Positions 5,885 through 32,000 of a stretch of 32,000 nt of DNA are shown here, piece by piece. Source of the stretch: Rhodobacter capsulatus SB 1003 (GTDB taxonomy: Bacteria; Pseudomonadota; Alphaproteobacteria; Rhodobacterales; Rhodobacteraceae); NCBI RefSeq assembly GCF_000021865.1, contig NC_014034.1:1020001-1052000 (forward strand), written 5' to 3'. How positions within the stretch are numbered: the first letter of the stretch is position 1; each line of letters starts with the position of its first letter. Under the pieces are notes generated by a model, which had not been told where the DNA came from, made no database searches, and saw only the letters and a list, made by a program, of their open reading frames with translations. A program made the translations under genes and the position numbers.

Positions 5885-5906
5885 GACGCCTCCTCTATCA
5901 TTTTCA

Positions 5907-5935: not shown

Positions 5936-6001
5936 GCGGACTTCTTGACCTCGGTGGACGCTCAGCTGTGCCTTCAAAGCGAAAACGCAGATGGATTGGT
6001 C

Positions 6002-6643
6002 TTATCTCTTCCACGCCCCCAGGATCGCTCCCGGCAGTCGTGCCGTCGCAGCCGGCGCCAACCCATCAAGGTCCAGCTTCTTCGGCATCTTCACCTGCCG
6101 TAAAAGGAGGAACACCGGCACGGTCTGGGCCCCGGTCAGAATACCATCCCGCCGCCGTCGCCCGCCCTTTGCTGCGGCAAGGCCCCGGCTGTTCAGCCGC
6201 GCATCATCGGCGACCAACAAACTAGGCCCGTTTCGGCGATAGACGAAGCGCAGGCGCATGCCGGTGCGCTGTTCCCAGCGCCAGGGGGTGATGCGCTGGC
6301 GGCCAAGACCGGTGACACCTGCCGCGGGCAAGGGAATGGCCAACCAGAGGCCGCCCTTGCCGCGGATCAGCACGCCGCCATCGAACGCGTGCAGGATGTC
6401 GGGCGCCTCGGTCCAGACGAGGCTTGCCGCGCGAAGGCTGGTGCCCGATCGCGGGAAGTCGGCCTGCCGAACGGTGTTGGCAAGGCGCGACCCAAGCCCA
6501 GAAGCCCGCACCTGCCCGCGCCAGTCGTCGCGCAGGCCCCGCCCGGCTGCAAAGACGCCGCGGGTGACGGCGGCCTCGGCCTCTTGCAGGATCTCGGTGG
6601 CGATTGCCGCCAGATCACCGTCGATGCTGGCGCCGATCTTCAT
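6002..6643 (-). CDS. Phage virion/neck protein (HK97 gp10-like or DUF6441-like, tentative)
   Basis: The start is trimmed to MKIGASIDGDLAAIATEIL (ATG 6641-6643), overlapping the upstream stop (ATGA). The call rests on its position in the head-tail joining block. Confidence 0.55.
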   Translation of the reverse strand: MKIGASIDGDLAAIATEILQEAEAAVTRGVFAAGRGLRDDWRGQVRASGLGSRLANTVRQADFPRSGTSLRAASLVWTEAPDILHAFDGGVLIRGKGGLWLAIPLPAAGVTGLGRQRITPWRWEQRTGMRLRFVYRRNGPSLLVADDARLNSRGLAAAKGGRRRRDGILTGAQTVPVFLLLRQVKMPKKLDLDGLAPAATARLPGAILGAWKR

Positions 6644-6954
6644 ACCTCTCGCGCCTCGGCCTTCCAGACGTGGCGCAGGGCGTCGCGCACGGGCTCGCCC
6701 CGAACCTCGTAGATCACACCCGCGATTTCGAACGTGTCCCCGGGCGCAAGGGCGCCCAGCGCGGCGCATTCGACATCGATCATCACGCTGTCGGTGACGA
6801 ACCGGCCTTCGCCGAAGCCTGACACCGCATCAGGCCGCCGCAGCATGACGCGCACGGCCATCGGCGCGCCCGCCCCACCAGATCGCCAGACCGCATCCTG
6901 TGCGAGGTTCGGATCGCGGAAGAGGGCGGCCGTGGCGCTGGCGAAGGCCGACAT
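6640..6954 (-). CDS. Head-tail connector/adaptor-like protein (tentative)
   Basis: 104 aa, ATG 6952-6954, tightly packed between the DUF2190 gene and the neck gene. Confidence 0.55.
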   Translation of the reverse strand: MSAFASATAALFRDPNLAQDAVWRSGGAGAPMAVRVMLRRPDAVSGFGEGRFVTDSVMIDVECAALGALAPGDTFEIAGVIYEVRGEPVRDALRHVWKAEAREV

Positions 6955-11521: not shown

Positions 11522-11727
11522 GTGCGGCCCCGGCTGAAGCTAGCCTTGCCCGCAACCGGCCGGGTATTGCCCGTGCCAGTTGCCATCTGCCCCTCGATGA
11601 AGCGGATGCGGGCCAGAAGATCGGCGGCATTCCCATAGGTCAGGCGGCGCCCATCGTATTCCACCACCAAGGCGCCTGCGGCATAGGCGCGGTGGAGCGC
11701 ATCAAGTTCGGCTTGCGAGAAGGACAT
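11518..11727 (-). CDS. gpW-like head-tail joining protein
   Basis: MSFSQAELDALHRAYAAGALVVEYDGRRLTYGNAADLLARIRFIEGQMA... The start at 11725-11727 overlaps the terL stop (ATGA). An alternative ATG lies at 11734-11736. The longer track ORF is not credible. Confidence 0.65.
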   Translation of the reverse strand: MSFSQAELDALHRAYAAGALVVEYDGRRLTYGNAADLLARIRFIEGQMATGTGNTRPVAGKASFSRGRT

Positions 11728-15950: not shown

Positions 15951-16655
15951 CTATCCCCTCGCCAGCGGCGCCACGTTCCAGAACAGCACTCGCCCCGGCC
16001 CGCGCTTGGCAAGGCACAACTCCCAGGCCTTTGCGTCGTAGTGCGGATCGGCTGGGAAGGGCGCGGCCAGCGCCGCTCGATCGCTGAACTTGCGGGGATG
16101 GACGTGGATCGTGGCATCGGCCACCTCGCGCGGGGTGAGGTCGCGGCCGATCTGGACGACATGGCGGCGGGCTTTCGGCCATGCGGCGGCAAGGCCACGG
16201 GCGAGGACGCCGGACCCGGCGGCGCACCAGACCTCTTCGGGGTCAAAGGCTGCCAGACGGGCAGCAGCGGCGATTGCCTCGACGGCGCCGGGGATTTCGG
16301 CGCCAAAGGGGATCAGGCTGGCGCCGGTGTTGCGGCAGTATTCGCGGGCGCGCGATTGCACGACCGACAGATAGCCCGGGCTGATCGGCACCACTTTGGC
16401 GCCGAGGCGGGCGGCCTCAAGCGTCCGAGGATGCGGCCGGGTGCGGGCGGCGACGAAGATCGTGGCGCGTTTGCCGAGGCCCCGCGCCACCGTGGCGATT
16501 GCCGTCTGGGCGCCGCCCTCGGGCGGGCTGGCATAGACCGCCTCCTGCACCCCGTCGAAGACCTGCGCGATGAAGCGGGCCTTGGTGCCGCCCGGGAAGA
16601 GGTCGTCGCGGACAACGGCAATGCCATGGTGCATTTCAAGGATCGGGGCGGTCAT
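15951..16655 (-). CDS. PLP-dependent enzyme, fold-type II (ACC deaminase / D-cysteine desulfhydrase-like), short form
   Basis: 234 aa. The N-terminus ..GIAVVRDDLFPGGTKARF.. resembles the Lys-containing PLP motif of this family. ATG 16653-16655 overlaps the MTase stop (ATGA). Confidence 0.65.
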   Translation of the reverse strand: MTAPILEMHHGIAVVRDDLFPGGTKARFIAQVFDGVQEAVYASPPEGGAQTAIATVARGLGKRATIFVAARTRPHPRTLEAARLGAKVVPISPGYLSVVQSRAREYCRNTGASLIPFGAEIPGAVEAIAAAARLAAFDPEEVWCAAGSGVLARGLAAAWPKARRHVVQIGRDLTPREVADATIHVHPRKFSDRAALAAPFPADPHYDAKAWELCLAKRGPGRVLFWNVAPLARG

Positions 16656-17626
16656 TGGTCGTCCTCCGGTTCGTCGTCGGTATCCGGCCCTTCGATCTCG
16701 CCGAACTCCACCGGCCCGCAGGCCTCGGTCGCCTTGCGGGGATCGCCTTTGCGGAACACCAGCACGTTTTGGTGGGTCCGGCCGAGCTTGCGGGCGACGG
16801 TGAACTGGCGGCCGACACGGATCGGCAGCGAGCCAACGGCCGTGACGAGGATCGCGTCGTTGTAGAACCGTGCGCCCGCGGCCTCAAAGGCCTCGACCGT
16901 CAGGCCGGGCAGGTTGACGAAGAACCCATCGGTATCGCGCACATCGCCGATCACCCAGACGGCGAAGCGGTTTGGCCGCAGGCGGGCGACGGCCTGGGCG
17001 ATGATTTCGGCTTGGGCCTTCAGGAAGTCGGCCAGGGGCATGGTGGAAAGGTCCGAGGGGTCATCGGAATAGCGTTCGAGGTTCCAGTAGGGCGGGGAGC
17101 TGAACACCAGATCGGCCTCGATGCCAGCGGTCAGCCGGGCCAGATCGCGGCTATCTCCGGCGATCCAGTGCGGGGCCGGGTCGCCCGCGAGATCGGCTTG
17201 CGCTTGGTTCGCGGCCACCTGTTCGGCGCGGAGTTCGATCCCGACGTAGGGGCGGCCAAGGCGGGCGGCGACAATGCCGCGGACGGAACCGCCCGCGAAG
17301 GGGTCCAGGACGGTGCCACCCGGCGGGCAGAACCAGCGATAGGCGATTTCGCAAAGGACGGGATCGAAGATCGACGTTCCCGAGGCCGTTGGGGCGTCCG
17401 AGGCGGCGTAATGGTCGGCCAGGAATTCCTCGGTGGTCATTTCCCGGCCGAGTTCTGCCTCCTTGGCGCGCTTCTTGACGTAGAATGACGGGTCGCCAGA
17501 GGTGTGCGACGGCATCAGGACACCGCCATTCTGCGGGGTAGCCGATTGTGAGGCGGGCCCAGCGCCGACGACATGCTCGCCGCGCATCAGGTCCTGGCCG
17601 AACGTGCGGGCGGGGCCCTTAGCCAT
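16652..17626 (-). CDS. DNA amino-methyltransferase (N6-adenine or N4-cytosine)
   Basis: The start is trimmed to MAKGPARTFGQDLMRGEH (ATG 17624-17626, AGGAGG SD). Motif I is VLDPFAGGSVRGIVAARLG and motif IV is VFSSPPYWN. Confidence 0.85.
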   Translation of the reverse strand: MAKGPARTFGQDLMRGEHVVGAGPASQSATPQNGGVLMPSHTSGDPSFYVKKRAKEAELGREMTTEEFLADHYAASDAPTASGTSIFDPVLCEIAYRWFCPPGGTVLDPFAGGSVRGIVAARLGRPYVGIELRAEQVAANQAQADLAGDPAPHWIAGDSRDLARLTAGIEADLVFSSPPYWNLERYSDDPSDLSTMPLADFLKAQAEIIAQAVARLRPNRFAVWVIGDVRDTDGFFVNLPGLTVEAFEAAGARFYNDAILVTAVGSLPIRVGRQFTVARKLGRTHQNVLVFRKGDPRKATEACGPVEFGEIEGPDTDDEPEDDQ

Positions 17627-18395
17627 GAGCGGCCTCCTTCCGGGCACGCTTGCCCTCCTTGTGGCGATAGTGGTCGATGTCCTTGTGGATCGGGGCCGGG
17701 TCGGCGGTGCCCAAGCCGGGGACGGCGGGGAAGGACTTCTCGCCCGGCCAACCACGATCCAGCAGGCGGGGCGCACCGCCGGGGGCAGCGCCGCGGCCGA
17801 GTTCGGAGCGAATACCCAGATCCAGCCAGGCGCGCTTGCGATCCTGCCACCAGCCCTTGCGGGCCTCGAACACCGAGAAGGGCGGGATGCCGAAACGTTC
17901 GGCGAGGTTCGCCGACGGGGCGGGGGCAGCGGCGGCGCCGCCGGTGCTTTCGCCCTCGGCGTTGCCGTCACTTCCACCCATCCCGAACCCCTCGAACCCG
18001 GCCATGATTTCGTCGAGCTCCGTCTCGTCAAAGCCGATCAGGTCCAGATCGAAATCTGCCTCGCGCAGCGTCGCTAGTTCCGACCGCAAGAGGTCGTCGT
18101 CCCACCCGGCATTCTCGGCGATGCGGTTGTCGGCGATCACCAGCGCTCTGCGCTGGGCCTCGGTCAGATGGTCCAGCACGATCACCGGAACCTCGGTCAG
18201 GCCCAGCGCCTTGGCGGCCATCAGGCGGCCGTGGCCTGCGATGATCACCTCGTCCTCGCCGATCAGGATCGGGTTGGTGAAGCCGAACTCGGCGATCGAA
18301 GCCGCGATCTGGGCGATTTGATCCTCGCTGTGGGTCCGAGCGTTGCGGATGTAGGGAACCAGCCGGTCAACCGAGAGCATGTCGATCTGAAGCAT
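17619..18395 (-). CDS. ParB-like N-terminal (nuclease/NTPase) domain protein
   Basis: The start is trimmed to MLQIDMLSVDRLVPYIRNARTHSEDQIAQIAASIAEFGFTNPILI..IIAGHGR (ATG 18393-18395). The gene overlaps the MTase start by 8 nt. Confidence 0.85.
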   Translation of the reverse strand: MLQIDMLSVDRLVPYIRNARTHSEDQIAQIAASIAEFGFTNPILIGEDEVIIAGHGRLMAAKALGLTEVPVIVLDHLTEAQRRALVIADNRIAENAGWDDDLLRSELATLREADFDLDLIGFDETELDEIMAGFEGFGMGGSDGNAEGESTGGAAAAPAPSANLAERFGIPPFSVFEARKGWWQDRKRAWLDLGIRSELGRGAAPGGAPRLLDRGWPGEKSFPAVPGLGTADPAPIHKDIDHYRHKEGKRARKEAAHG

Positions 18396-19206: not shown

Positions 19207-20172
19207 TCAGTAGATTTGATGGGCGCGCAGGGTGGCCTCACTCACAAGGCCCGCCCGCAGCAGGGCATCGCGCTGGATGTTCGTGACGGCGCTGGTCGGC
19301 ACGTAGGCGCCTGAGTTCAGCCAGGCGGCCAAGCGCGCCAACCGGTCCTCGGGGGTCGCGGTCTGGCTGCCGGGCGCAACGGCCGGGCCAGCGCCAGCTT
19401 CCCCAGCCCCTTGCAACCTTGCCGCCTGGGAAATCCGCTTGGCATGGCGCGCCGCGATCGCCTGGCTGAAATACTCCCACGTTCGGATCGGGCTGCTCCG
19501 GGCTTTTGCGGTGCGGTCTGCGATCACTGGCAGGACGTCCAGTTCGAGGTCGTAGCCTGCCGCCAGCCAGGCGCCGATCGTCGCCGTCGTTCCGGTGATG
19601 GCTGCCCGCGCTGCTGGGGTCATGCCTTCGCCGCAAGCGGCAAGGCAGGCGGCCTCGGCTGCGTCCAGATCGGGGCCTTCGTCGGCGGCGTCAACCTCAA
19701 CCCGGGCCTCGCGCGTCGCGCCCGCGTCACGCGCGGTAGTAATTACTGGTTCTTTACTTACAAGGTTAGTGTCCAGATTCTGGACATGGCTTTTCGCAAA
19801 ATCTGGACATGGCTTTTGCCCATTTCCATGTCTGGATTCTGGACATGGGTCAGGCCGGTTTTCGGGGCCCAGCGGCAGTTCCGCCTGCGCCGAAAACTCC
19901 GGCTCGAAGGCCAGGAAGTACCGGGTTGATTGCCGCCGGTGGGCGCCCTCGGAGTGGCGCCGTTCGCGGCGGATGAGCCCGGCCTGTTCCAGCTTGTCGA
20001 GATGCACGTTCAGGCTGGAACGCGAGATTTCGGCATCGGCCGCCAACTGGTCCTGCGACGGGAAGCACCCGTAATCCGGGTTGTGCCGGTCGCAGAGATG
20101 CCAGAGGACGAGCTTGGTCGCAGGCGCCAGCCCGCGCTGCTGGATCGCCCAGTTGGTGGCTCGATGGCTCAT
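19207..20172 (-). CDS. Replication initiator-like protein (N-terminal winged-helix, lambda O-like role)
   Basis: 321 aa, MSHRATNWAIQQRGLAPATKLVLWHLCDRHNPDYGCFPSQDQLAADAEISRSSLNVHLDKLEQAGLIRRE. The coding sequence carries an internal iteron cluster. Confidence 0.7.
   Translation of the reverse strand: MSHRATNWAIQQRGLAPATKLVLWHLCDRHNPDYGCFPSQDQLAADAEISRSSLNVHLDKLEQAGLIRRERRHSEGAHRRQSTRYFLAFEPEFSAQAELPLGPENRPDPCPESRHGNGQKPCPDFAKSHVQNLDTNLVSKEPVITTARDAGATREARVEVDAADEGPDLDAAEAACLAACGEGMTPAARAAITGTTATIGAWLAAGYDLELDVLPVIADRTAKARSSPIRTWEYFSQAIAARHAKRISQAARLQGAGEAGAGPAVAPGSQTATPEDRLARLAAWLNSGAYVPTSAVTNIQRDALLRAGLVSEATLRAHQIY
19771..19849. repeat. Iteron cluster / putative phage origin inside the replication gene
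   Basis: TCTGGACATGGCTTTT occurs at 19779-19794 and 19802-19817, and TCTGGACATGGG at 19838-19849. A partial TCTGGA lies at 19831-19836 and an inverted GTCCAGA at 19771-19777. An AT-rich patch at 19735-19770 is adjacent. Confidence 0.6.
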
Positions 20173-20945: not shown

Positions 20946-21536
20946 ATGGCGTTTGTCGCCCGGAATTTCTATTCAATTCTCGAGACCTCCTTCCGCTGGG
21001 AGTGCAGCCAGACCGAGATCGTCGAACTGGCGATGGCCGAGAAGATCGACCTCGTCATCGCGCTGCCGAATGTCCGGTTCGACGATGGCACCGAAGCGAG
21101 GATGGGCGTGATCGAGGGCGGTGCTGTGCGCCCCTTGTTCCGCGGCTATGGACTACTCGAGGAGCATGTCTTCATCCGCCAGGCGCGACCTGCGAACTGC
21201 GGCTGGAAGCGGATCGAAGAGCCTAAGGGGGGCATCCGCGTCATGGCGCCCGACGTGCTGATCACAGCGGCCGAGGTCGAACGGTTCGAAGACGAAAACA
21301 ACCTTGTGCGGAGGGTCGTGTCGGGGCCCGGGGCACAATCCCGCTATGACTGGGATGGGTTCTATTGCGAGATCATCTGCCGGATGCATAACAACGGCCT
21401 CCCAGAGAAGCAGAAGGAACTCATCGAGGAGATGTTCAATTGGTTCCTCGGCAAGTCAGTCAATGGGGACGCGCCTGACGAGTCGACAATCCGCAAGAAG
21501 ATCAGAGGTTTCTGGGGCAGGCTCTGCCCCGATTAG
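20946..21536 (+). CDS. Hypothetical protein at the repressor/immunity position (no canonical HTH-S24 architecture recognised)
   Basis: 196 aa from MAFVARNFYSILETSFRWECSQTEIVELAMAEKIDLVI (ATG 20946). It is divergent from the early operon, lies upstream of int and is AT-richer than the phage core. Confidence 0.6.
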   Translation: MAFVARNFYSILETSFRWECSQTEIVELAMAEKIDLVIALPNVRFDDGTEARMGVIEGGAVRPLFRGYGLLEEHVFIRQARPANCGWKRIEEPKGGIRVMAPDVLITAAEVERFEDENNLVRRVVSGPGAQSRYDWDGFYCEIICRMHNNGLPEKQKELIEEMFNWFLGKSVNGDAPDESTIRKKIRGFWGRLCPD

Positions 21537-21561
21537 TCTCTCGCCCGCCCAGCGCGGTTCT

Positions 21562-21611
21562 GACCGGCGCAATTCCCCGGACCTTTCCGCCGGTTTCCGC
21601 CTCTGCGCCGG
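21562..21611. repeat. Right copy of the 50-bp inverted repeat
   Basis: gaccggcgcaattccccggacctttccgccggtttccgcctctgcgccgg. It lies between the repressor-position gene and int. Confidence 0.85.
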
Positions 21612-21678
21612 TTTGGCCCGAATGAGACATTGCTCCGCGCCGCGGGTCGTCGCTGACTGCGGGTGAAAGGAGCGTCGC

Positions 21679-22908
21679 ATGAAGGCAAAACTCTCTGAAC
21701 GCGTTGTAAAGGCTGCCGAAGTCGGCAGCCGCAAGTACGTCCTGTTTGACGAAGACACCCCCGGCTTCGGGCTCTGCGTCTACACGACGGGGCGAAAGGG
21801 CTTCGTCCTGATCTATCGGATCGCGGGCCAGCAGAAGCGCTTCACGATCGGCGTCTGGCCGACATGGTCGGTCACCGCCGCCCGGGATGAAGCGAAGCGC
21901 CTGATCCGTGAAATCGACCGCGGGGAAGACCCTCTCGACACTCGCAAGGCGGCCCGCGGTGCGCCGACGGTCAAGGAACTGGCCGAGCGGTTCATCGAAG
22001 AGCACCTGCCGAAGCTGGCCAAGACCAACGCTTCGGACCAGAAGAGCATGCTGGAAAAGCTGGTGCTGCCCGAATGGAAGAACCGGAAGGTGGCGGACAT
22101 CACGCCCACGGACGTCGATCGCCTGCTGACCAAGATCGCGGCCGGGCGGGCGCGGCCGTCGAAGAAGAAGCCCACGCAGAAGCGCCGCAAAAAGCTGGCC
22201 CCGCCCAAGCCCACGCCGGTGCGCGCCAACAGGGCGGGTGAAATGCTGCGCAAGATGTTCAACCTCGCCATGCTGTGGAAAATGCGCACCGACAATCCCG
22301 CCTTCGGTTTCCGGCGCCGCCCCGAGGTTGCCCGCGACCGGTTCCTATCTTTCGAGGAGATCGAACGCCTAGCCAACGCGCTGGCAGTCGACGAAGACCA
22401 GCGCGCCGCCAGCATCATCCGCCTCTGCATGCTGACCGGCGCCCGGCTGGGCGAGGTCCGCACCGCCACCTTCGACCAGTTCAACCTCGATCTGGCCATC
22501 TGGACCAAGCAGGCCGCTTACACAAAGCAGCGCCGCATCCACCGCGTGCCGATCTCGCACGAAGCCGTGGCGCTGATCCGCCTGCGCAGGGAAATCGTGC
22601 CGAAGGGCTGCCCGTTCCTCTTCCCCGGCGACGTACCCGACCAGCCCGTTGGCGATCCCAAGCGCTTCTGGCCGAAGATGCAGAAGGTCGCCCTGATCCC
22701 CGACGTGCGCATCCACGACCTGCGCCACACCTTCGCCTCGCTGCTGGTTTCCGGCGGCGCATCGCTGGAAATGATCGGCCGCCTCCTCGGCCACACCCAG
22801 ATCGGCACCACCCAGCGCTACGCCCACCTGATCGACGCACCCCTGCGGGCGGGGGTCAACGCAGTGGGTGAGATGCTGAAGCCGCGGTTGAGGGTGGTGG
22901 GGGAGTAA
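21679..22908 (+). CDS. int: Tyrosine site-specific integrase (P4-type with DUF4102-like N-terminal arm-binding domain)
   Basis: 409 aa. The N-terminus is MKAKLSERVVKAAEVGSRKYVLFDEDTPGFGLCVYTTGRKGFVLIYR. The catalytic region is ..TGARLGEV..HDLRHTFASLL..LLGHTQIGTTQRYAHL. Confidence 0.95.
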   Translation: MKAKLSERVVKAAEVGSRKYVLFDEDTPGFGLCVYTTGRKGFVLIYRIAGQQKRFTIGVWPTWSVTAARDEAKRLIREIDRGEDPLDTRKAARGAPTVKELAERFIEEHLPKLAKTNASDQKSMLEKLVLPEWKNRKVADITPTDVDRLLTKIAAGRARPSKKKPTQKRRKKLAPPKPTPVRANRAGEMLRKMFNLAMLWKMRTDNPAFGFRRRPEVARDRFLSFEEIERLANALAVDEDQRAASIIRLCMLTGARLGEVRTATFDQFNLDLAIWTKQAAYTKQRRIHRVPISHEAVALIRLRREIVPKGCPFLFPGDVPDQPVGDPKRFWPKMQKVALIPDVRIHDLRHTFASLLVSGGASLEMIGRLLGHTQIGTTQRYAHLIDAPLRAGVNAVGEMLKPRLRVVGE

Positions 22909-23078
22909 GGTGCAGCCTGCAAGGTCGGCTGGCGGTAGCGCAGTCCGAATGGTTGTGGTTCAATGCCTTGCAGGCCGTGCAACCTCTTGTTGCGCGACGA
23001 TTGTGCTGTAAAGGTTATCTGGCGAGGAATTTGCTCGGGGGTGCAGTGGGTGGGAGTGGGCAGGATTGATGAGACGTC

Positions 23079-26000
23079 ATGCTCAGCCAAAGTTTTCGGC
23101 ATAGCATGAAATCGAACGAGTCAAATTTCGGATTTTTGCAATCCCACGAACCCCAGCTTTACAGGCTGGGGACACTAGCGGAGCGCTATTTTTCTGAAGA
23201 CCCGAACACATGCAACATTAAGCTGCGACAGTTCTCGGAATTGGTGGCGCAGTTTACTGCGAGCAGATTGGGTCTTCCGATTGCACAATCGGACAACCTT
23301 GCCGACCTGCTTCGGTTACTAAAGATCGAGCGCAGCCTTCCAAAACAAGTCCTTGAGATACTCCACAGTTTGCGAATCGCCGGTAACCAGGCAGCGCATC
23401 AAAATACCGATGACCACTCAAGTGCCTTAAGCGGACTCAAGCTCGCGCGCCAATTGGCGATCTGGTATTTCAGAACATTTCACAAGCCCTCTGGTATTTT
23501 TGGTCCTTTCATTCCGCCAGAAAGGCCCAAGGACGTTTCAGAATCGATCGTCTTGGAGCTGGAACGTTTAAAGGCGGAGTTGGAGGCCTCCCTCACTGAA
23601 GCCGATCAACTACGGGAAGCGGCAAGGCAGGCCGAAATTGAAAGGAAAAGCGCTGCAGATCGCGCCGAGCAGGAGCGAGTTGACCGCGAAACTTGGGAGA
23701 AGCTTGCGGAGGAAGCGGAGGAAGATCGCAGGGCCCTTTCCTCACAGCTACAATCATTGCAAGTTCAGGCTTCCTCCAAGGACGCTCTAACGTTTGAGGC
23801 AGTCACCGAACTGGCTCGAGATGCTGCCAGCAAGATCAACCTGGACGAGGCAGACACACGGGTTCTTATCGATAAGCAATTGCGCGATGCAGGATGGGAG
23901 GCGGACACGAAACAACTTCGGTTCGCATCCGGTGCTCGCCCCATGAAAGGCCGCAATCGCGCGATCAGTGAATGGCCAGCCGAAAGTGGACCGGCCGACT
24001 ACGCACTCTTCTGCGGCATGGTCTTGGTGGGAACCGTGGAGGCAAAGCGGCAGAACAGAAATGTCATGGAGGTCTTGCGGCAGGCAGAACGGTACTCAGC
24101 GGGCTTCAAGCTGAATGAAGGTGAACTGGCACAAGGTGCTCCTTGGGCAGGTTTCAAAGCTCCCTTTGCGTTCTCGACAAACGGACGGCCCTACCTCAAG
24201 CAGGTTGAAACCTTGTCGGGCATCTGGCGGCGGGATTTGCGCGATGCCAACAACCCTGCCGAAGTGCTTGTCGGATGGCCTTCACCTCGCGGGCTGCTTG
24301 AGCGGCTGACTGTGAATAAGTCCGCAGCGCACCATGACCTTGCATCGCAGCCCTTCGACTTTGGGTTTCCGCTAAGACCATATCAACACAAGGCGATCGA
24401 GGCGGTTGAACAGGCATTGCTTGAGGATCGGCGGGCGATGCTCGTCGCTATGGCAACCGGAACGGGGAAGACAAAGCTCGCAATCGCTATGCTTTACCGG
24501 CTGATCGCCGCCAAGCGGTTCCGCCGCGTCTGCTTCGTTGTGGATAGAAGCGCGTTGGGTGAGCAGACCGAGAGCGAGTTCACCACTACCAAAGTGGTCA
24601 ACGGCAAGTCTTTTGCGGACATTTTTGGCCTCAAGGGGCTTGATGACGTGGTCCCCGATGACGAAACCCGCATCCACATCTGCACGATCCAGGGGTTGGT
24701 CCGCCGAGTGCTGTATGCCGCTGATGAGGCTGATGCGCCCACAGTCGACCAGTATGATCTGATCGTGGTGGACGAATGCCATCGCGGGTATCTGCTCGAC
24801 CGCGAAATGTCTGAGGGCGACATTACGTTTCGCAGCCAGGACGACTACATCTCGAAGTACCGCCGAGTCCTCGAGTACTTCGATGCGGTAAAGATTGGCC
24901 TGACGGCCACACCAGCGCTACACACCACTGAAATCTTCGGTCTTCCAGTGTTCACTTATTCCTATCGCGAAGCAGTGGTTGACGGTTACCTTGTTGATCA
25001 CGAACCGCCGGTGCGCATCGGAACGCTGTTGTCTGAGGGTGGTATCCATTTCTCTCGTGACGACCAAGTTGATTTCATCCACCCAACAAGCGGAGCAATT
25101 CAACCCGCTACTTTGCCAGACGACATCGACTTCGAGGTTGACCAGTTCAACAAGAGCGTTATCACCGTCCCTTTCAATCGAGTAATCGCACAAGAGCTCA
25201 CGAAGTTCATCGATCCAAGCTTGCCAGATAAGACGCTGGTCTTTGCTGTGTCCGACGCGCACGCGGATATCCTTGTGAACGAGTTGCGGGTCGCATTCCG
25301 TTCAGCATTTGGCGCGCTGCCTGATGCAACTGTGCAGAAGATCACGGGGAAAGTCGACAAGGTCGGAAAGTTGATCCGATCGTTCCGCAACGATCCACTG
25401 CCTAAAGTGGCGGTGACAGTAGACCTCCTGACTACTGGGATCGACGTCCCTCGGATCAGCAATCTGGTGTTCATGCGGCGCGTCAACAGCCGTATCCTTT
25501 ACGAACAAATGCTTGGCCGTGCCACCCGGCTATGTCCAGAAATCGACAAGGAGGCTTTTCGCATCTTCGACGCGGTGGACCTCTACGCTCATTTGCAAAA
25601 CCTTACCGACATGCGGCCGGTGGCTGCGGACCCAAGCTTCACCCTCACAAAGCTGTTCGAAGAACTCAGCCAACGCGGCGACGTAGAACATAAAGAGCGT
25701 GTGCGTGAGCAGATCATCGTTCGCCTCCGACGCAAGCTGCGGCGCTTGTCGCCAGAGGCACGGGCTCGATTTGAAAAGGCTGCGGGTGAAACTCCGGAAG
25801 AAAGCCTGCAGCGTTTTATCTCTGGCGATGCCAGCGCGCTTGCAGAATGGGCGGCCGAGCGACCTTCTTTGGGCCCGATCCTTGACTGGACCTCGGAGGA
25901 TGGCACTCCAAACTATATCCCGATCTCTGAACATCCTGATCAGGTAACGACCGTTTCACGCGGCTATGGTGCAGCAGACCGGCCCGAGGACTTTCTGGAT

Positions 26001-26486
26001 GCTTTCGCCACTTTTGTCAGGTCCAACGTCAATACTATCGCTGCCCTGAAGATCGTCGTGCAGCGCCCCCAAGAGCTGACCCGCGAGGAACTGCGGCAAT
26101 TGCGCCTTGAGCTGGACGCGGCGGGCTTCACCGATAGTAAGATCAGACGCGCCTGGGCCGATGCCAACAACGTAGAAATCGCGGCCTCGATCATCGGTTA
26201 TATCCGCCAAGCGGCGCTGGGTGATCCCCTCGTTCCCTATTCTGATCGCGTGCGGCATGCCGTGGATACGATCTTGCGCCAGCGGCAATGGACCGATGTG
26301 CAGCGAAAGTGGATTGACCGGATCGGGCGGCAGCTTGACCTTGAGACTATTGTGGATCGTGCGGCCTTCGATGCCGAGCCCTTCGCATCGCTAGGGGGTT
26401 GGTCTCGGATTGACCGCGTGTTTAATGGCGAACTGGCGCAAGTGGTTCGCGACCTTAACGAAAACATCTGGAAAGACGCAGGCTGA
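23079..26486 (+). CDS. hsdR: Type I restriction enzyme R subunit with N-terminal DUF4145-like domain plus coiled coil, and EcoEI_R_C-type C-terminus
   Basis: 1135 aa. The N-terminus is NFGFLQSHEPQLYRLGTLAERYFSEDPNTCNIKLRQFSE...HSLRIAGNQAAH, followed by an E/R/A-rich coiled coil. The nuclease region is ..PADYALF..VGTVEAKRQ. The helicase motifs are MATGTGKT and VVDECHRG. An alternative start lies at ATG 23106. Confidence 0.93.
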   Translation: MLSQSFRHSMKSNESNFGFLQSHEPQLYRLGTLAERYFSEDPNTCNIKLRQFSELVAQFTASRLGLPIAQSDNLADLLRLLKIERSLPKQVLEILHSLRIAGNQAAHQNTDDHSSALSGLKLARQLAIWYFRTFHKPSGIFGPFIPPERPKDVSESIVLELERLKAELEASLTEADQLREAARQAEIERKSAADRAEQERVDRETWEKLAEEAEEDRRALSSQLQSLQVQASSKDALTFEAVTELARDAASKINLDEADTRVLIDKQLRDAGWEADTKQLRFASGARPMKGRNRAISEWPAESGPADYALFCGMVLVGTVEAKRQNRNVMEVLRQAERYSAGFKLNEGELAQGAPWAGFKAPFAFSTNGRPYLKQVETLSGIWRRDLRDANNPAEVLVGWPSPRGLLERLTVNKSAAHHDLASQPFDFGFPLRPYQHKAIEAVEQALLEDRRAMLVAMATGTGKTKLAIAMLYRLIAAKRFRRVCFVVDRSALGEQTESEFTTTKVVNGKSFADIFGLKGLDDVVPDDETRIHICTIQGLVRRVLYAADEADAPTVDQYDLIVVDECHRGYLLDREMSEGDITFRSQDDYISKYRRVLEYFDAVKIGLTATPALHTTEIFGLPVFTYSYREAVVDGYLVDHEPPVRIGTLLSEGGIHFSRDDQVDFIHPTSGAIQPATLPDDIDFEVDQFNKSVITVPFNRVIAQELTKFIDPSLPDKTLVFAVSDAHADILVNELRVAFRSAFGALPDATVQKITGKVDKVGKLIRSFRNDPLPKVAVTVDLLTTGIDVPRISNLVFMRRVNSRILYEQMLGRATRLCPEIDKEAFRIFDAVDLYAHLQNLTDMRPVAADPSFTLTKLFEELSQRGDVEHKERVREQIIVRLRRKLRRLSPEARARFEKAAGETPEESLQRFISGDASALAEWAAERPSLGPILDWTSEDGTPNYIPISEHPDQVTTVSRGYGAADRPEDFLDAFATFVRSNVNTIAALKIVVQRPQELTREELRQLRLELDAAGFTDSKIRRAWADANNVEIAASIIGYIRQAALGDPLVPYSDRVRHAVDTILRQRQWTDVQRKWIDRIGRQLDLETIVDRAAFDAEPFASLGGWSRIDRVFNGELAQVVRDLNENIWKDAG

Positions 26487-27955
26487 TGAACGGAACAAGG
26501 GCACGGGAAACCGTTCAGAAGCTTTGGAACGCAAGCAAGAGTTTGCAGGGCGGCGGCGTAAGCTACTACGAGTACGTCACGGAGCTGACCTACCTGCTGC
26601 TGCTGAAGATGCTGGAAGAGGTCAAGCGCAACGGGGTCAAGCTGGAGGAGCGCCTGCCGCCGAACCTGCGCTGGGGGGAGCTAAAGCGGCTTGAGGGCGA
26701 ACAGCGCCTGATCCGCTACCGTGCGATGCTGCTGGAGCTGGGCACCTCCGACAAGTTTAACTTCCCGCTCGTCAAACAGGTTTTCACTGATGCGAAAACC
26801 TCGCTGACCAAGGCCACGGCCCTCACCAGCCTTATAACCACCATCGACACGGTCGACTGGTATGCGGCCGAAGAAGATGGCCTGGGTGACCTTTACGAGG
26901 GCTTGCTTGAACGCACCACATCTGAGCGCAAGTCCAAGGCGGGCCAGTATTTCACGCCCCGGCCGCTGATCGAAACCATCATCCATTTGATGAAGCCCAA
27001 GGTTGGGGAGGTTATCCAAGACCCCGCGGCGGGCACCGGTGGCTTTCTAATTGCCGCTCACCGCGCCATCATGCGCGATACAGACGACCTAACGACAGTT
27101 CCCAAGGACGTCGCCTTTGCCCAGCGGAACGGAAAGTACCAGGGCGCGGAACTAATTACAGGCACGCACCGGCTGAATACGATGAACTTGCTTTTGCATG
27201 GCATTGACCAGCCGATCGACCCGATTGATGCATTGACGTCGGACGCCAAGAAGTTCGATCCCGCCGATCTGATCCTGACCAACCCGCCCTTCAACAAGTT
27301 CCCCGAAAGCGTGGCACGCGATGACTTCGTTATCACTGCAGAGGCCAGAAAGGGCCCGCTTCCCTTTGTCGAACACGTCATCCGGGGGCTGAAGGTTGGC
27401 GGGCGAGCCGCGATCGTCGTGCCCGACAACACCCTGTTCGAAGACAGCATGGGCCGCGATCTGCGCAATTGGATGATGGACCTGTGCGATCTGCACACCA
27501 TCCTGCGCCTACCGACCGGCATCTTCTACGCCCAGGGCGTCAAGACCAACGTGATCTTTCTGACCAAGAAGTCAGAGGAACGGGTCGGGGCGACCAAGGC
27601 GGTCTGGTTCTACGATCTGCGCGCACAGATGCCTAACTTCGGCAAGACCCGCACGCTGACGACCGCTGATTTCGAACCCTTCATTGCCGCCTATGGGGAT
27701 GATCCCCACGGCAAATCGCCTCGCATCGACGAGGGCGAAGCCGGACGTTTCCGCAAGTTCACCCGAGACGAGATCTCCAAGCGTAATGACAACCTCGACG
27801 TCACTTGGCTGCGCGACGATGTCGAAGTCGTCGAAGAAGGGCTGACCGAACCTGACGACATCGCATCCGCGATCATAGGGCATCTGCGCGCCGCGCTCGA
27901 GGAGATCGAAGCCGTGGCCGACGAACTCGCCGAAGTGGCCGAGGCTGACGAATGA
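26486..27955 (+). CDS. hsdM: Type I R-M N6-adenine DNA methyltransferase subunit
   Basis: 489 aa with motifs IQDPAAGTGGFLI and LILTNPPFN. The start overlaps the hsdR stop (TGATG). Confidence 0.95.
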   Translation: MNGTRARETVQKLWNASKSLQGGGVSYYEYVTELTYLLLLKMLEEVKRNGVKLEERLPPNLRWGELKRLEGEQRLIRYRAMLLELGTSDKFNFPLVKQVFTDAKTSLTKATALTSLITTIDTVDWYAAEEDGLGDLYEGLLERTTSERKSKAGQYFTPRPLIETIIHLMKPKVGEVIQDPAAGTGGFLIAAHRAIMRDTDDLTTVPKDVAFAQRNGKYQGAELITGTHRLNTMNLLLHGIDQPIDPIDALTSDAKKFDPADLILTNPPFNKFPESVARDDFVITAEARKGPLPFVEHVIRGLKVGGRAAIVVPDNTLFEDSMGRDLRNWMMDLCDLHTILRLPTGIFYAQGVKTNVIFLTKKSEERVGATKAVWFYDLRAQMPNFGKTRTLTTADFEPFIAAYGDDPHGKSPRIDEGEAGRFRKFTRDEISKRNDNLDVTWLRDDVEVVEEGLTEPDDIASAIIGHLRAALEEIEAVADELAEVAEADE

Positions 27956-28878
27956 CCACCGCTGAAACCTTTGGCCGCACGATCCAGCTTTTCCTTGTCG
28001 ACGGCACCCCCAACGGTCTGCGCAAGGCGACCATCCACGGCTGGACCGGTCTGATCTTTGTCGCGACAACCTCCACCTTCGGCGCTCTGACGTCCCGCAG
28101 GGAACTCGATCGCACCGGCATTAACCTGCTGGCGGGGCCCGACCCAGAAAAAGAGGGCGGCACACGGGTCTACATCGGGTCAGCCAACAGTGTGCAGGAG
28201 CGGATCAGGCAAAGCGCCGTCCAGCGCGACTTCTGGGAAATCGCCATCGCCGTCACCACCAGCGACGATGACTTGTCGAAAGGCCATGTCGAATACCTCG
28301 AGGCTCGGCTGATCGAACTGGCCACCCAAGCCCAGCGCGTGGCCCTGGACAACGGGAACAACCCCGCAAGCCAGCGCAGACGGCTGCCCGAGGCCGATCA
28401 GGCGAACATGGAACAGTTCCTCGCCAATCTGAAAATCATGCTCCCCGTGATCGGGCTGGACCTGCTTAAACCGCAACCGCGCGCTGCGTCACTGGTTAGC
28501 ACGCCGGTCGAACAGCGCACCTCGGGCGAGGTAAAGTTCGAGATGCGCCACAAGACCGGCGTGCAGGCCACGGCGGTCGAAGAGGATGGCGAGTTCATCG
28601 TTCTGGAAGGCTCGCAGGCCTTGATCAACACCGGCCATGTCCAGCAAAGCTATGGCAGGCTGAAGAAAAGCCTTGTGGATCAGGGCATCCTTGTTCCGTC
28701 TGCCCCGAACATGCTGGTGTTTGCCAAGCCCCATGCGTTCAACAGCCCTTCAGCGGCAGCGGCCGTAGTGCTGGATCGGAACAGCAACGGACGGATTGAG
28801 TGGAAGGTGCAGGGATCAAGGCAGAGCTACCACGAATGGCAGCAAGCGCGGATCGCTATTGACGGGGTGAGCGCATGA
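27952..28878 (+). CDS. GIY-YIG nuclease-like / DUF4357-like protein embedded between hsdM and hsdS
   Basis: 308 aa, GRTIQLFLVDGTPNGLRKATIHGWTGLIFV..TGINLLAGPDPEKEGGTRVYIGSANSVQERIRQS..VEYLEARLIELA. There are ATGA overlaps at both ends. Confidence 0.8.
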   Translation: MTTAETFGRTIQLFLVDGTPNGLRKATIHGWTGLIFVATTSTFGALTSRRELDRTGINLLAGPDPEKEGGTRVYIGSANSVQERIRQSAVQRDFWEIAIAVTTSDDDLSKGHVEYLEARLIELATQAQRVALDNGNNPASQRRRLPEADQANMEQFLANLKIMLPVIGLDLLKPQPRAASLVSTPVEQRTSGEVKFEMRHKTGVQATAVEEDGEFIVLEGSQALINTGHVQQSYGRLKKSLVDQGILVPSAPNMLVFAKPHAFNSPSAAAAVVLDRNSNGRIEWKVQGSRQSYHEWQQARIAIDGVSA

Positions 28879-30500
28879 GAGAGCTGCCGAATGGGTGGGC
28901 AGAGACCACGCTAGGCAAGGTAACGTTGCCTTTCGAAACAACAGATCCAACCCGACGCCCGGACGAGACGTTTCAGTACATCGACATTGGCTCTATCGAT
29001 AATCAGACCCAAACTATCACGCAGCCCAAGTCTATTTTGGGCCGAGATGCACCCTCGCGAGCGCGGCGCGTTGTCAAAAAAGATGACGTGCTGTTTTCGA
29101 CAGTCCGAACCTACTTGAAGAACATTGCAGTAGTTCCAGAATCATTGGATAGCCAACTTACCTCCACTGGCATTGCTGTTTTGCGCCCAAGTGAGGCACT
29201 TGATGGGCGCTACCTCTTCAATTGGGTGAAGTCAGATGAATTCATCTCGACGATGTCCAAGGCGCAGGATGGCACTCTTTATCCCGCGGTGACGGATAAA
29301 GACGTGTCGGGCGGAAGAATTCCACTACCGCCGCTCCATGAACAAAAACGAATAGTGGCCAAGGTGGATGGGTTGACCGCCCGCACCGCCCGCGCCCGAG
29401 CCGACCTTGACCGCATCCCCACCCTCATCGCCCGCTACAAACAAAGCCTCCTGGCCCTCGCGTTTTCGGGTGAACTGACCGCTGGCTGGCGAAAGACTAA
29501 GGCGCTCAATGACTTCGAAACGGTCAAACTTCACTCGCTTTGTTTGTCAGTTACGGACGGCGATCATCAAGCACCACCGAGGTCAGATTCCGGGATTCCG
29601 TTCATCACAATCTCTGCAATGAATACCGGACGGATCGATCTTTCGAAGGCAACCCGCGCTGTTCCCCGCAGTTACTTTGACGAGATCAAGGAATCGCGAC
29701 GCCCTGCCATTGGTGACGTTTTGTTCTCCGTTACAGGTTCCATCGGAATTCCGGCACTGGTTGAAACCGACCTTCCTTTCGTCTTTCAGCGGCACATCGC
29801 AATAATGAAACCGAATACTGAACGGGTGAGCGGTCGTTTCCTGTCTTATCTACTCGCGTCCCCGCAGATCAGAGAACAAGTTGATGCAATCGCCACTGGT
29901 ACAGCTCAGTTGACTGTTCCTCTTGGTGGGTTGAGACAATTCGATTTTCCTTGTCCCACCCTAGAGGAGCAAGCCGAAATCGTTCGTCTCATCACGTCTG
30001 CCTTCAACTGGGTGGACCGCATGGCCGCCGACCACGCCGCCGCCGCCGACCTCCTCCCCAAACTCGATGCCGCCATCCTCGCCAAAGCGTTCCGTGGCGA
30101 ACTCGTCCCACAAGACCCGAGCGACGAACCCGCCAGCGCATTGCTGGAGCGTGTTCAAGTGGAGCGTAATGCCACCTCAAGAAACCCTCGCGGCCGACGA
30201 CTAGCCGGAGTCTCCGAGGTCATCGAGATTCAACTGCCGCCAATTCAGATACATGTATCAGTCGGCCCAGTTACAATAATAGAAACCCGCGGGAGGCAGG
30301 CGATGACCAAAAGCCGCCAAGATGATGATGTGATGGGCAAACCCTATTTGGCCAGCCTACTGAAGGAGGGGCACAGTGCATCAGCGCAAGATCTGTTCAA
30401 GGCCGCTGATCTGCCTGTGGCCGATTTCTACAAGCAACTCGCCTGGGAGATCGCCAACAAGCATATCCGCGATGACGATGAAAAGCTGGAAGCGCTCTGA
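28875..30500 (+). CDS. hsdS: Type I R-M specificity subunit (two TRDs) with ~110-aa C-terminal extension
   Basis: 541 aa. The conserved helices are LPPLHEQKRIVAKVDGL..IPTLIARYKQSLLALAFSGELT and CPTLEEQAEIVRLITSAF..LLPKLDAAILAKAFRGELVPQDP. The tail is ..MTKSRQDDDVMGKPYLASLL..LPVADFYKQLAWEIANKHI. Confidence 0.9.
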   Translation: MRELPNGWAETTLGKVTLPFETTDPTRRPDETFQYIDIGSIDNQTQTITQPKSILGRDAPSRARRVVKKDDVLFSTVRTYLKNIAVVPESLDSQLTSTGIAVLRPSEALDGRYLFNWVKSDEFISTMSKAQDGTLYPAVTDKDVSGGRIPLPPLHEQKRIVAKVDGLTARTARARADLDRIPTLIARYKQSLLALAFSGELTAGWRKTKALNDFETVKLHSLCLSVTDGDHQAPPRSDSGIPFITISAMNTGRIDLSKATRAVPRSYFDEIKESRRPAIGDVLFSVTGSIGIPALVETDLPFVFQRHIAIMKPNTERVSGRFLSYLLASPQIREQVDAIATGTAQLTVPLGGLRQFDFPCPTLEEQAEIVRLITSAFNWVDRMAADHAAAADLLPKLDAAILAKAFRGELVPQDPSDEPASALLERVQVERNATSRNPRGRRLAGVSEVIEIQLPPIQIHVSVGPVTIIETRGRQAMTKSRQDDDVMGKPYLASLLKEGHSASAQDLFKAADLPVADFYKQLAWEIANKHIRDDDEKLEAL

Positions 30501-32000
30501 TGCGGATCGATCGGGTATACATTGACGGGTTCCGCAACCTGCAGGACGTCGAAGCGGACTTTGACGAAGGCTGCCTGACAACGGTCATCATCGGCCAAAA
30601 CGGCGCGGGCAAGTCGAACCTGATCGAAGCGATCGTCGAGATTTTCCGCCATCTTGATCCGCCCACCAGCAAACACGGCGGCAAGCTGCGCTTCACGTTC
30701 GAAATCGACTACATCATCAAGGGCCGCAAAGTGCGTGCGAGCAATCGCGACGGGTCAACCAAGGTGCTGGTTGACGGCGAGCTGATGCCCATGACCCGGT
30801 TTCAGGACAGCAAGGCCGACCTCTTCCCCGATCTGATCTTTGGCTACTATTCCGGCACCGGCCGACGCTTGGAAAAGCTCTTCGACGACCATCAGGCCCG
30901 GTACTACAACGTCATCAACAAGGACAGACCAGAGGCCGAGTACGCCGCCGCCCGCACCGCCCGACGCTTGTTCTATTGCCGCCCCGTGCACGGCGTGTTC
31001 GCGCTGCTCTGCCATTTCGCGAAACCGAGCGAAAAGCCCGATTCAGCAAACGTCCTCAGCAAACAACTGGGGATAACCGGGTTTCATTCGGCCTTGGCGC
31101 ACTTCAAGGAACCGTCCTGGTTCAACCAGTCAAACTGGAAAAAGGCCCGGGCCTCAGCTTCGCCGGGGCGAGGGCGGCGAAGCTACAGCGATCTAGGCGA
31201 ACAGGCCGAAGATGTATGGGGTGCAAGGGGCCCCGCAGGTGAATGCGCCCGTGCCCTGAAGGACATGGCCTTCCACCCCTTGTCGGTCACCGGGAAGGTC
31301 GTGGACGACTATCGTGACAAGCCAAAGGTCGAAGCGCAGCTTGCCTGCTTCCTCCGCGACAAGGCAGCCCTGCAGAAGTTCGCAGCGAGGTACGAAACAG
31401 ACCAAGACATGTTTGCGGCCCTCGAAGCCGCTGACATTTCAGACCTGTTCCGCGAAATGCTCGTGTGGGTCACTCGCGACGGTAACGACAGCGGCGACGT
31501 CAGTTTCAGCGACCTGTCTGATGGCGAGCGGCAGCTGCTGATGGTGCTTGGCCTGATCCGGGTGTCGCGTGGCAGAGAGGCCCTGTTCCTACTGGACGAG
31601 CCCGATACCCACCTGAATCCTGCATGGCAGCTGACCTACCTTGAGCTGATCAAGGAATGGACCGACGTGGCTGCGGACAAGGATCGGTGTCAGATCATCA
31701 TGACCTCACACAATCCGCTGACCATCGCGTCGCTCACCAGACAAGAGGTGCGCGTGATGCAGCAAAGCGAAGCTGCCCGGCTGGTCGTTTCGGAACCATT
31801 TGCGGACCCACGTGGCATGGGTTTCACCGCCACTCTGACGCAGATATTCGGTCTTTCCACGACCTTGGACTTGGCGACCCAGCAACAGATAGATGATCGG
31901 AACGCCCTTGCCCGCATCGAACAGCGCAGCGAGGAGCAGCAGAAGGAGTTGATCTCCATCAATGAGAAGCTTAATAGGCTGGGCTTCATGAATGAAAGTC
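30500..32000 (+). CDS. ABC/SMC-type AAA ATPase, restriction-system-associated; partial (runs off window end)
   Basis: Not in the ORF track because no stop lies in the window. Manual translation from ATG 30500 (TGATG overlap with the hsdS stop) gives MRIDRVYIDGFRNLQDVEADFDEGCLTTVIIGQNGAGKSNLIEAI (Walker A). About 300 aa further come FSDLSDGERQLL (signature), ALFLLDEPDTHLNP (Walker B) and IIMTSHNP (H-loop). The frame is open to position 32000. Confidence 0.85.
   Translation, partial: MRIDRVYIDGFRNLQDVEADFDEGCLTTVIIGQNGAGKSNLIEAIVEIFRHLDPPTSKHGGKLRFTFEIDYIIKGRKVRASNRDGSTKVLVDGELMPMTRFQDSKADLFPDLIFGYYSGTGRRLEKLFDDHQARYYNVINKDRPEAEYAAARTARRLFYCRPVHGVFALLCHFAKPSEKPDSANVLSKQLGITGFHSALAHFKEPSWFNQSNWKKARASASPGRGRRSYSDLGEQAEDVWGARGPAGECARALKDMAFHPLSVTGKVVDDYRDKPKVEAQLACFLRDKAALQKFAARYETDQDMFAALEAADISDLFREMLVWVTRDGNDSGDVSFSDLSDGERQLLMVLGLIRVSRGREALFLLDEPDTHLNPAWQLTYLELIKEWTDVAADKDRCQIIMTSHNPLTIASLTRQEVRVMQQSEAARLVVSEPFADPRGMGFTATLTQIFGLSTTLDLATQQQIDDRNALARIEQRSEEQQKELISINEKLNRLGFMNES

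Follow-up and report, generated by a model that had tools for sequence, protein, structure and literature searches.

Type I restriction-modification (RM) loci in which additional defence genes are embedded have been published ('guilt by embedding', Payne et al.), and the PrrC-type guard is their paradigm: EcoprrI keeps PrrC latent, and the Stp peptide of phage T4 triggers PrrC (10.1101/2024.01.29.577857; PMC12707154). DarTG2 is also embedded in a type I RM locus, that of enteropathogenic Escherichia coli (EPEC) (PMC12255303). A locus of this kind is analysed here in a stretch of 32,000 nt from Rhodobacter capsulatus SB 1003 (contig NC_014034.1, positions 1,020,001 to 1,052,000), which is referred to as the window and numbered from its first nucleotide. 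The locus begins at position 23079, runs past the window end and comprises a type I RM system, a candidate defence gene of the PDC-S14 family and the Septu pair ptuA/ptuB. Its HsdS subunit carries a C-terminal extension, a 65-residue module that is predicted to be a winged helix (wH) and whose coding sequence runs directly into ptuA. Embedded defence genes in RM loci, Septu, PDC-S14 and the guard idea had all been described or catalogued before; the hsdS extension is the one feature that argues for a physical integration of the components.

According to a cited paper, Septu systems in general mostly stand apart from other systems, and only 0.7% are embedded in Hma. Other PtuAB pairs cleave tRNA-Tyr, and PtuAB are the effector proteins of retron Eco7 (PMC11555353, PMC13096335), while one Septu PtuAB is reported to cut DNA, by way of a citation in PMC11555353. 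PtuAB pairs differ in their reported target (nicked DNA or tRNA-Tyr), and no trigger was found for Septu Ec B88. The manner in which Septu senses infection is unsettled in this literature, and detailed knowledge of a possible crosstalk between embedded systems and their host RM is largely limited to PrrC. The conserved link between HsdS and Septu at the protein level gives a concrete, testable case of such crosstalk.

All genes of the operon lie on the forward strand. The gene hsdR (23079-26486, 1135 residues, defined from the list of open reading frames (ORFs) and from profile searches) is followed by hsdM (26486-27955, 489 residues), which encodes an N6-adenine methyltransferase, by gene 3 (27952-28878, 308 residues), the embedded candidate defence gene PDC-S14, by hsdS including the wH module (28875-30500, 541 residues), and by ptuA, which starts at 30500, is cut at the window end (32000) and has a full length of 550 residues, to approximately position 32152. 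The junctions, read directly in the sequence, are TGATG at 26484-26488 (hsdR/hsdM), ATGA at 27952-27955 (hsdM/gene 3) and at 28875-28878 (gene 3/hsdS), and TGATG at 30498-30502 (hsdS/ATPase gene). An earlier sequence-only reading of this DNA had described five forward-strand ORFs joined by four stop/start overlaps, and its coordinates and junction letters are confirmed; its domain calls for hsdR, hsdM, gene 3, hsdS and the ATPase also agree with the profile searches. Its count of five genes, in contrast, is one too low. A further contig, L091, is 100% identical to window positions 21303-32000 (10,698 nt) and extends further downstream, where ptuB (284 residues, forward strand, approximately 32149-33003 in window numbering, outside the window) overlaps the ptuA stop by 4 nt as the sixth overlapping gene of the operon. 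Because ptuB follows ptuA beyond position 32000, the unit has six genes, and the second ATPase of the earlier reading is one member of a Septu pair.

Since many operons have short stop/start overlaps, the overlaps alone carry little weight, whereas a gene order with tight junctions that is kept across many divergent loci is more than chance. A scan of L091 for promoter and terminator consensus sequences returned no sigma-70-like promoter and 13 terminator-like hairpins, compared with 12.9 in shuffled sequence, a result that has no bearing on a single transcript. The G+C content is 0.53-0.61 across the defence operon and approximately 0.62-0.71 in most neighbouring 1-kb bins, with 0.48 in the bin 5001-6000, and this drop of the operon relative to the neighbouring DNA fits acquired DNA.

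The hsdS gene had been noted as extended, and the extension is real, although nothing had been drawn from it: it is the wH module (MTKSRQDDDV...DFYKQLAWEI...EAL), encoded at 30303-30500 on the forward strand in frame with hsdS, with a stop that overlaps the ptuA start. In HsdS, recognition domains and conserved regions extend to approximately residue 440 and are followed by a variable linker (residues ~441-476) and then by the module, which has the invariant residues Y15/L16 and a DFYKQLAWE helix. Canonical HsdS proteins of the window-type family have 433-487 residues and a tail of the form ...ELVPQDPNDEPAS.LLERI.AER...KRGRRKKA, whereas the HsdS proteins behind which an ATPase and nuclease pair follows have 514-589 residues, consisting of the addition of a variable linker and a C-terminal module of 65-75 residues. 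No Pfam, PADLOC or PDB sequence match was found for the module, and solved HsdS structures align only to residue ~439, short of it. The AlphaFold2 (AF2) model of the module has a helix-helix-helix-beta-hairpin arrangement with a predicted local distance difference test (pLDDT) score of 72.7, and its top structural matches in the PDB are all winged-helix proteins (Foldseek TM 0.6-0.7, E 0.03 or worse); the predicted fold is accordingly named a winged helix here. A phmmer search with the module type of the window (type A) against 1.84 billion representative proteins yielded 127 clusters, in which it lies almost always at the extreme C-terminus of proteins of 480-610 residues. An HsdS-fused winged-helix partner of PtuA is not described in the searchable literature, with one key ABC-ATPase survey outside its coverage.

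The conservation of the arrangement was followed in two samples. The first comprises 80 genomic loci around PDC-S14 relatives (S14-anchored), onto each of which the window proteins were mapped; the second is anchored on PtuA, is unbiased for hsd genes, and was assembled from a metagenome scan (5 loci) and seven PtuA homologues at 55-75% identity. Window-type hsdM stands directly upstream of S14 in 29 of the 80 loci. An extended hsdS followed immediately by ATPase and nuclease genes is found in 18 of those 29, and an hsdS of normal length followed by another gene or by nothing in 7, so that the C-terminal module of HsdS is present in 18/18 loci with a downstream ATPase and nuclease pair and in 0/7 without one. 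The stop codon of the module overlaps or abuts the ATPase start, with a stop/start overlap in most loci. The full R-M-S14-S-PtuA-PtuB order is present in L001, L002, L016, L019, L020, L067 and L068 and probably in L066, which is cut by a contig end, and many Alphaproteobacteria and metagenomes share an R-M-(S14)-S-ATPase order, with protein identities of 45-99%. In the PtuA-anchored sample, hsdS ends at the ptuA start and ptuB comes after it in 11/11 loci, the hsdS directly upstream is wH-extended in all 11, and hsdR and hsdM are present in 10/11. The genes are therefore no random neighbours, as had been proposed, in view of the recurrence of their order and of the position of every one of the 11 PtuA loci behind an extended hsdS. 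A remnant locus in Rhizobium phaseoli (L087, 6368-10489) lacks hsdR, hsdM and S14 and consists of a 93-residue ORF, a truncated hsdS::wH (451 residues) and the ptuA/ptuB pair; it sits among sugar-transport genes.

The position downstream of hsdS is also used by other cargo. Where hsdS is not extended, it is followed by Shedu SduA in L010 (12229-13608) and L023 (12391-13788) and by an OLD/Gabija-like ATPase in L078 (12327-14177). In L093, a DUF1016/YhcG nuclease gene takes the place of S14 and a DUF5655/NucS-like gene comes after ptuB (5618-6661 and 10649-11623). Since unrelated cargo occupies the site downstream of hsdS, the site is an insertion hotspot in any case.

The modules fall into three types, each with its own ATPase clade. 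Type A pairs with PtuA proteins that resemble PDLC00293 and are 55-90% identical to that of the window, type B pairs with PDLC00302 PtuA and PDLC00330 PtuB, and type C pairs with a PtuA-like ATPase of 533 residues and an HNH-like protein of 360 residues. The three types are called positional analogues rather than a proven single family, because their comparison with hhalign shows no firm homology. The Spearman correlation of pairwise identities is 0.81 between wH and PtuA, compared with 0.40 between wH and HsdM and 0.36 between wH and S14. A mixed case is given by L019, in which HsdM is 84% identical to that of the window while the type B wH and PtuA are both at 33%. The divergence of wH thus tracks PtuA rather than HsdM or S14, which indicates that wH-ptuA-ptuB is an evolutionary unit grafted onto hsdS. 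Despite wH identities as low as ~26-37%, the module stays in frame with hsdS in 26/27 loci of all three types.

The module also carries start signals of its own. A GGAGG motif resembling a Shine-Dalgarno (SD) sequence is located at 30292-30296 on the forward strand, 6 nt before the in-frame ATG at 30303 inside hsdS. The first codon of wH is a start codon in 27/27 loci (24 ATG, 2 GTG and 1 TTG). In 22/27 it is preceded, at a distance of 5-22 nt, by an SD-like purine motif; the background frequency of such motifs is 19% for in-frame positions across these ORFs and 24% for the linker. A free 65-residue wH product may therefore be made alongside the fusion, or the start signals may be kept for another reason. 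In L094, wH is a truly separate gene, with an overlap between the hsdS stop and its ATG (ATGA) and an AAGGAG motif ahead, and this is the only locus with a truly unfused wH. Other apparent stand-alone wH genes of 65-70 residues were rejected: in L091 and L093 the long hsdS::wH ORF is intact and the separate gene is a choice of the gene caller, and L081 is too short to judge. The 65-residue product is present in databases as 'hypothetical protein U717_05990 [Rhodobacter capsulatus R121]'. For annotation, this means that callers often report wH as a hypothetical protein of 65-70 residues and leave the hsdS core uncalled even though the long ORF is intact.

The protein encoded downstream of the module matches PADLOC PtuA PDLC00293 (8e-166) and the Pfam ABC/AAA_21 ATPase families, and its motifs are intact, namely Walker A (GQNGAGKS), signature (LSDGERQ), Walker B (LFLLDEPD) and H-loop (TSHNP). 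The L001 orthologue of ptuB matches PADLOC PtuB PDLC00343 (1.6e-93); PtuB has a DVDHFRPK...WDNF motif, and no match to Pfam HNH was obtained. Homology identifies the PtuA ATPase and the PtuB HNH nuclease as a Septu-type effector, whose activity is predicted. The scores against the retron-Ec78-type equivalogs are far below their cut-offs (66.9 against 500 for NF041760 and 36.7 against 150 for NF041761), and the PtuAB pair of the window is, by these profiles, of a different clade. Solved Septu and retron PtuA structures are distant (E ~1e-8) and align with the C-terminal lobe only. Membership in MADS was rejected, as the matches to mad2, mad3 and mad5 are far weaker than those to type I or PtuA profiles and the NCBIfam scores stay under their cut-offs (87.5 against 720 for MAD2 and 53.2 against 400 for MAD5), and no match to PrrC is present among the top PADLOC matches of the operon proteins.

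The type I core is complete. HsdR matches NCBIfam NF008521 with 1564.6 bits (cut-off 729) over profile positions 2-1122 of 1123, and it contains the Pfam domains DUF4145, ResIII, Helicase_C and EcoEI_R_C, with a coiled coil in the N-terminal part and an SF2 motor. The DUF4145/coiled-coil N-terminus had been regarded as a sensor-like extension. It is present in every HsdR homologue recovered, with or without extra genes, and because HsdR aligns over its full length to NF008521, the N-terminus is typical of the family and not a locus-specific sensor that was added on. The alignment with PADLOC REase_I PDLC03042 (1.3e-247) begins at residue 13; as alignments with family models and with several orthologues likewise start only at residue ~10-13, hsdR may in fact begin at its second ATG, 23106 (ambiguity region 23079-23108). 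HsdM matches PF02384 (1.5e-67) and, over its full length, PADLOC MTase_I PDLC03026 (8.5e-182), and its score against NCBIfam TIGR00497 is 49.9, under the cut-off of 242.75. HsdS matches PF01420 (Methylase_S) in two stretches and PADLOC Specificity_I, has two target-recognition domains and conserved regions, and aligns to the solved HsdS structures 5ybb and 3okg (~3e-60) and to EcoKI HsdS 2y7c (residues 101-439). By homology, the type I system is complete and of the PRK11448/EcoEI_R_C kind; its methylation and restriction activities are predicted.

A comparison with the related locus of Thioclava sp. FR2 (L001) reveals that the HsdS recognition domains are only ~41% identical (window 28888-30300 against L001 10958-12304), whereas the flanking genes are 90-99% identical. 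The central conserved region of HsdS (29325-29481) is the only part of this stretch that still matches L001. The difference is a typical type I specificity swap within an otherwise shared cassette.

Gene 3 matches PADLOC PDC-S14 (PDLC04923, 3.5e-111) over its full length, four more PDC-S14 models match as well, and its C-terminal part is a DUF4357 domain (PF14267, 2.8e-14). The middle region is GIY...YIG-like, with the pattern GI[Y]-x15-YIG followed by conserved R84, E117 and N134, and relatives carry the NCBI name 'GIY-YIG nuclease family protein'; PF01541 (GIY-YIG) itself reaches only E 0.23, in 3/14 PDC-S14 relatives. A PDB sequence search with the PDC-S14 profile gave nothing meaningful, and the AF2 model, with a pLDDT of 45 from a shallow alignment, was not used for a fold search. 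Weak RAMA matches are present in 8/14 relatives, and DUF4357 is commonly fused to, or in a larger family with, McrB GTPase homologues and occurs in some GmrSD homologues (PMC11090510, PMC4619093). DUF4357 together with the weak RAMA matches makes a modification-reading nuclease a reasonable guess; PDC-S14 is regarded as an autonomous embedded gene that probably acts alone and plausibly encodes such a nuclease, with DNA modification as the signal it reads. The tyrosine of the GIY motif is conserved in 86/86 homologous loci, and an asparagine, Asn58, encoded by AAC at 28123-28125 on the forward strand where relatives have TAC, is found only in the window's own sequence, again seen in L091 and L092. 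This Y58N change, a single T-to-A substitution, is probably inactivating or attenuating for the predicted nuclease in the R. capsulatus copy, and the second putative nuclease that had been listed for the locus may therefore be crippled here.

PDC-S14 is 68-99% identical across all 80 loci while its partners vary. In the window-type family it separates hsdM from hsdS, whereas in an unrelated type I family (MTase_I PDLC03029) its place is between hsdS and hsdR; with other type I systems it is found upstream or opposite. It also occurs beside a type III enzyme with a Snf2/HKD protein and beside a GajB-like UvrD-family helicase gene. In ~55/80 loci, there is a type I MTase-like gene no more than 10 kb away. 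It is present in 8/11 PtuA-anchored loci and absent in 3/11. PDC-S14 is thus an optional, promiscuous and highly conserved hitch-hiker. The proposal that the two extra components form one composite with the RM system is supported for the ATPase, which is tied to hsdS in 11/11 loci, and not for PDC-S14, which is optional and also accompanies unrelated RM systems. PDC-S14 is one of 145 PADLOC candidates embedded in BREX, DISARM or type I RM (10.1101/2024.01.29.577857), and the search of the literature brought up no defence phenotype of this family. In some loci (L003, L019, L020, L062, L064, L066-L068, L070, L090, L095 and L096), an 8xMP gene (PF24838, octameric membrane protein, 230-265 residues) that is missing from the window stands between hsdM and S14 with overlapping junctions. 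It has this position in at least 3 of the 11 PtuA-anchored loci and may form a pair with S14.

The operon is adjacent to a prophage, whose body covers 1-21540 on the reverse strand and gives PHROGs matches to tape measure, minor tail, capsid/protease, portal, and large and small terminase proteins. It includes a DNA methyltransferase gene (16652-18031, reverse strand; phrog_498 and phrog_12517) and a replication-initiation O-like gene (19207-20172, reverse strand). A Pfam HTH_36 match was also obtained in this part of the window. A low-GC gene at 4688-5977 (0.48 in a region of ~0.68), with a 429-residue product that matches phrog_9788 of unknown function, is possibly a moron. On the forward strand, a 216-residue phage protein (20886-21536) is followed by a tyrosine integrase of 409 residues (21679-22908; Pfam Phage_integrase, Arm-DNA-bind_3 and Phage_int_M), which ends 170 nt upstream of hsdR. 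Thioclava sp. FR2 has this integrase at the corresponding position (99% identity); its locus shares the integrase, the operon and the early region of the phage at ~90% nucleotide identity, with swapped HsdS recognition domains. Approximately 190-240 nt after ptuB lies the 3' half of a tRNA, at 11886-11916 in L091 (the contig ends inside it) and at 15198-15300 in L001. It comprises an anticodon-loop-like CTCATAA, the T arm, the acceptor strand and CCA, and a terminator hairpin comes next. ARAGORN did not call this remnant, a tRNA search gave no tRNA gene in the window, L001 or L091, and no second copy of the fragment is present in the window, including the region between the phage body and the integrase, so that the left end of the element was not found. 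The fragment is probably an attachment-site (att) remnant that marks the right end of the integrated element. With the integrase upstream of hsdR and the tRNA remnant after ptuB, the phage most likely carries the operon as cargo within its integrase-att arm. The prophage with its own methyltransferase, which the sequence-only reading had placed beside the operon, is therefore real, but the operon is probably inside the element. Related cassettes adjoin other integrases and are also found on conjugative elements.

With slightly better than even confidence, the locus is interpreted as one defence operon of six genes, hsdR-hsdM-[PDC-S14]-hsdS::wH-ptuA-ptuB, which is carried by a temperate phage or an integrative element and in which PtuAB would be docked through the wH module. 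The complete type I RM system would form the first layer of defence; PDC-S14, autonomous and with a probable active-site mutation in the R. capsulatus copy, the second; and the Septu effector PtuA/PtuB with a third part, the wH module on HsdS, the third. The wH module would dock PtuAB on the HsdS/HsdM complex (M2S or R2M2S) as a tethered copy and perhaps as a free copy too, so that Septu would be held and controlled by the restriction complex. Septu would then fire at its target, a tRNA or DNA, when the restriction complex is blocked by phage anti-restriction proteins or otherwise perturbed, like PrrC with EcoprrI; by this analogy, the docked Septu is possibly a PrrC-like guard, and both its docking and its guarding are inferred. 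A more specific version, which is put forward tentatively, holds that wH is made both as the C-terminus of HsdS and as a free 65-residue form, that it docks PtuAB, and that the restriction enzyme acts as the infection sensor for an abortive effector, in a swappable PrrC-like guard with a co-evolving adaptor and ATPase. Several points weigh against docking in general. Docking and guarding are derived from comparison among loci, and these loci are phylogenetically related, so that the counts and p-values overstate their independence. The confidence of the wH model is only moderate, with Foldseek E values of 0.03 or worse, and hhalign gives E 0.0035 and 9% probability for type A against type B and nothing for type C. 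The use of the site downstream of hsdS by Shedu and the OLD-like ATPase also counts against it, and the kept internal start, the unfused wH of L094 and the lack of hsdR and hsdM in L087 fit a free Septu subunit that could work apart from the restriction complex.

The last of these points lead to an account, possible but doubtful, in which the type I RM system, PDC-S14 and a three-part Septu (wH/PtuA/PtuB) are independent systems that accreted at a hotspot and share only a transcript and a vehicle, the fusion being a tolerated read-through without function and wH being produced from its internal start and working with PtuAB alone. The conserved internal SD motif and start codon, the separate wH gene and the presence of wH-ptuAB without hsdR/hsdM would all be in keeping with it, as would the occurrence of Shedu, the OLD-like ATPase, DUF1016/YhcG and 8xMP at hsd junctions, and embedding can simply link horizontal transfer (10.1101/2024.01.29.577857). 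An incidental fusion should often be lost, however, and yet wH is in frame in 26/27 loci across three types; moreover, hsdS lies directly upstream in 11/11 PtuA loci although Septu is generally found outside other systems. It is quite improbable that wH is instead a small transcriptional regulator of ptuAB or of the whole operon, in the style of a C-protein, BrxR or RptR, and no structural adaptor. Its predicted fold and its top structural matches, which are DNA-binding proteins and regulators, would suit such a role, and small regulators of RM-centred defence islands are known, for example RptR (PMC12255303), but the module is located mid-operon, translationally coupled to ptuA, rather than in a position before a promoter. 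It is also joined to the C-terminal end of a protein that belongs to a large complex, has no obvious dimerisation element in its 65 residues, and diverges along with the PtuA protein, as a binding partner would. Very improbable as well is a retargeted nuclease, in which HsdS::wH would recruit PtuAB to cut DNA at or near unmethylated HsdS sites as a second endonuclease beside HsdR. The tethering of wH to the DNA-recognition subunit, the hsdS fragment retained with ptuAB in L087 and the DNA cutting reported for one Septu PtuAB (as cited in PMC11555353) speak for it; against it, self DNA would be unprotected in L087, which lacks hsdM and has a truncated hsdS, and other PtuAB pairs cleave tRNA-Tyr (PMC11555353, PMC13096335).

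If the link between HsdS and Septu is real, evolution has arrived more than once at a 'guard of restriction', with adaptor-effector cassettes that can be exchanged; if it is non-functional, the locus is no more than a common stacking of known or catalogued systems on a prophage. The composite system proposed in the sequence-only reading was right in outline and of a kind already published, although its gene count was wrong and the significance of the hsdS extension was overlooked.

Compared with the described RM loci with embedded genes, the window locus likewise has extra genes inserted among the hsd genes of a single operon on a mobile element, and PDC-S14 is defined in this way. It differs in the protein-level join through hsdS::wH, which was not found described for those loci in the literature searched. 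Gene 3 agrees with PADLOC PDC-S14 in its full-length hidden Markov model (HMM) match and in being embedded in or beside RM, and differs by Y58N in the window copy. With PrrC and EcoprrI, the locus shares an effector based on an ABC ATPase and encoded inside a type I RM operon. PrrC, however, is one polypeptide (ATPase and anticodon nuclease) encoded between hsdS and hsdR in a type IC locus, whereas here PtuA and the HNH protein PtuB are two proteins, with a wH adaptor on HsdS, and the PrrC architecture is absent. The PtuAB pairs of Septu and of retron I-A (Ec78/Eco7) are similar in that an ATPase and an HNH protein are encoded by overlapping genes, and, as in the retron, a third, clade-specific partner accompanies the pair. 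That partner is the wH module on HsdS in the window locus, whereas it is a reverse transcriptase with msDNA in the retron.

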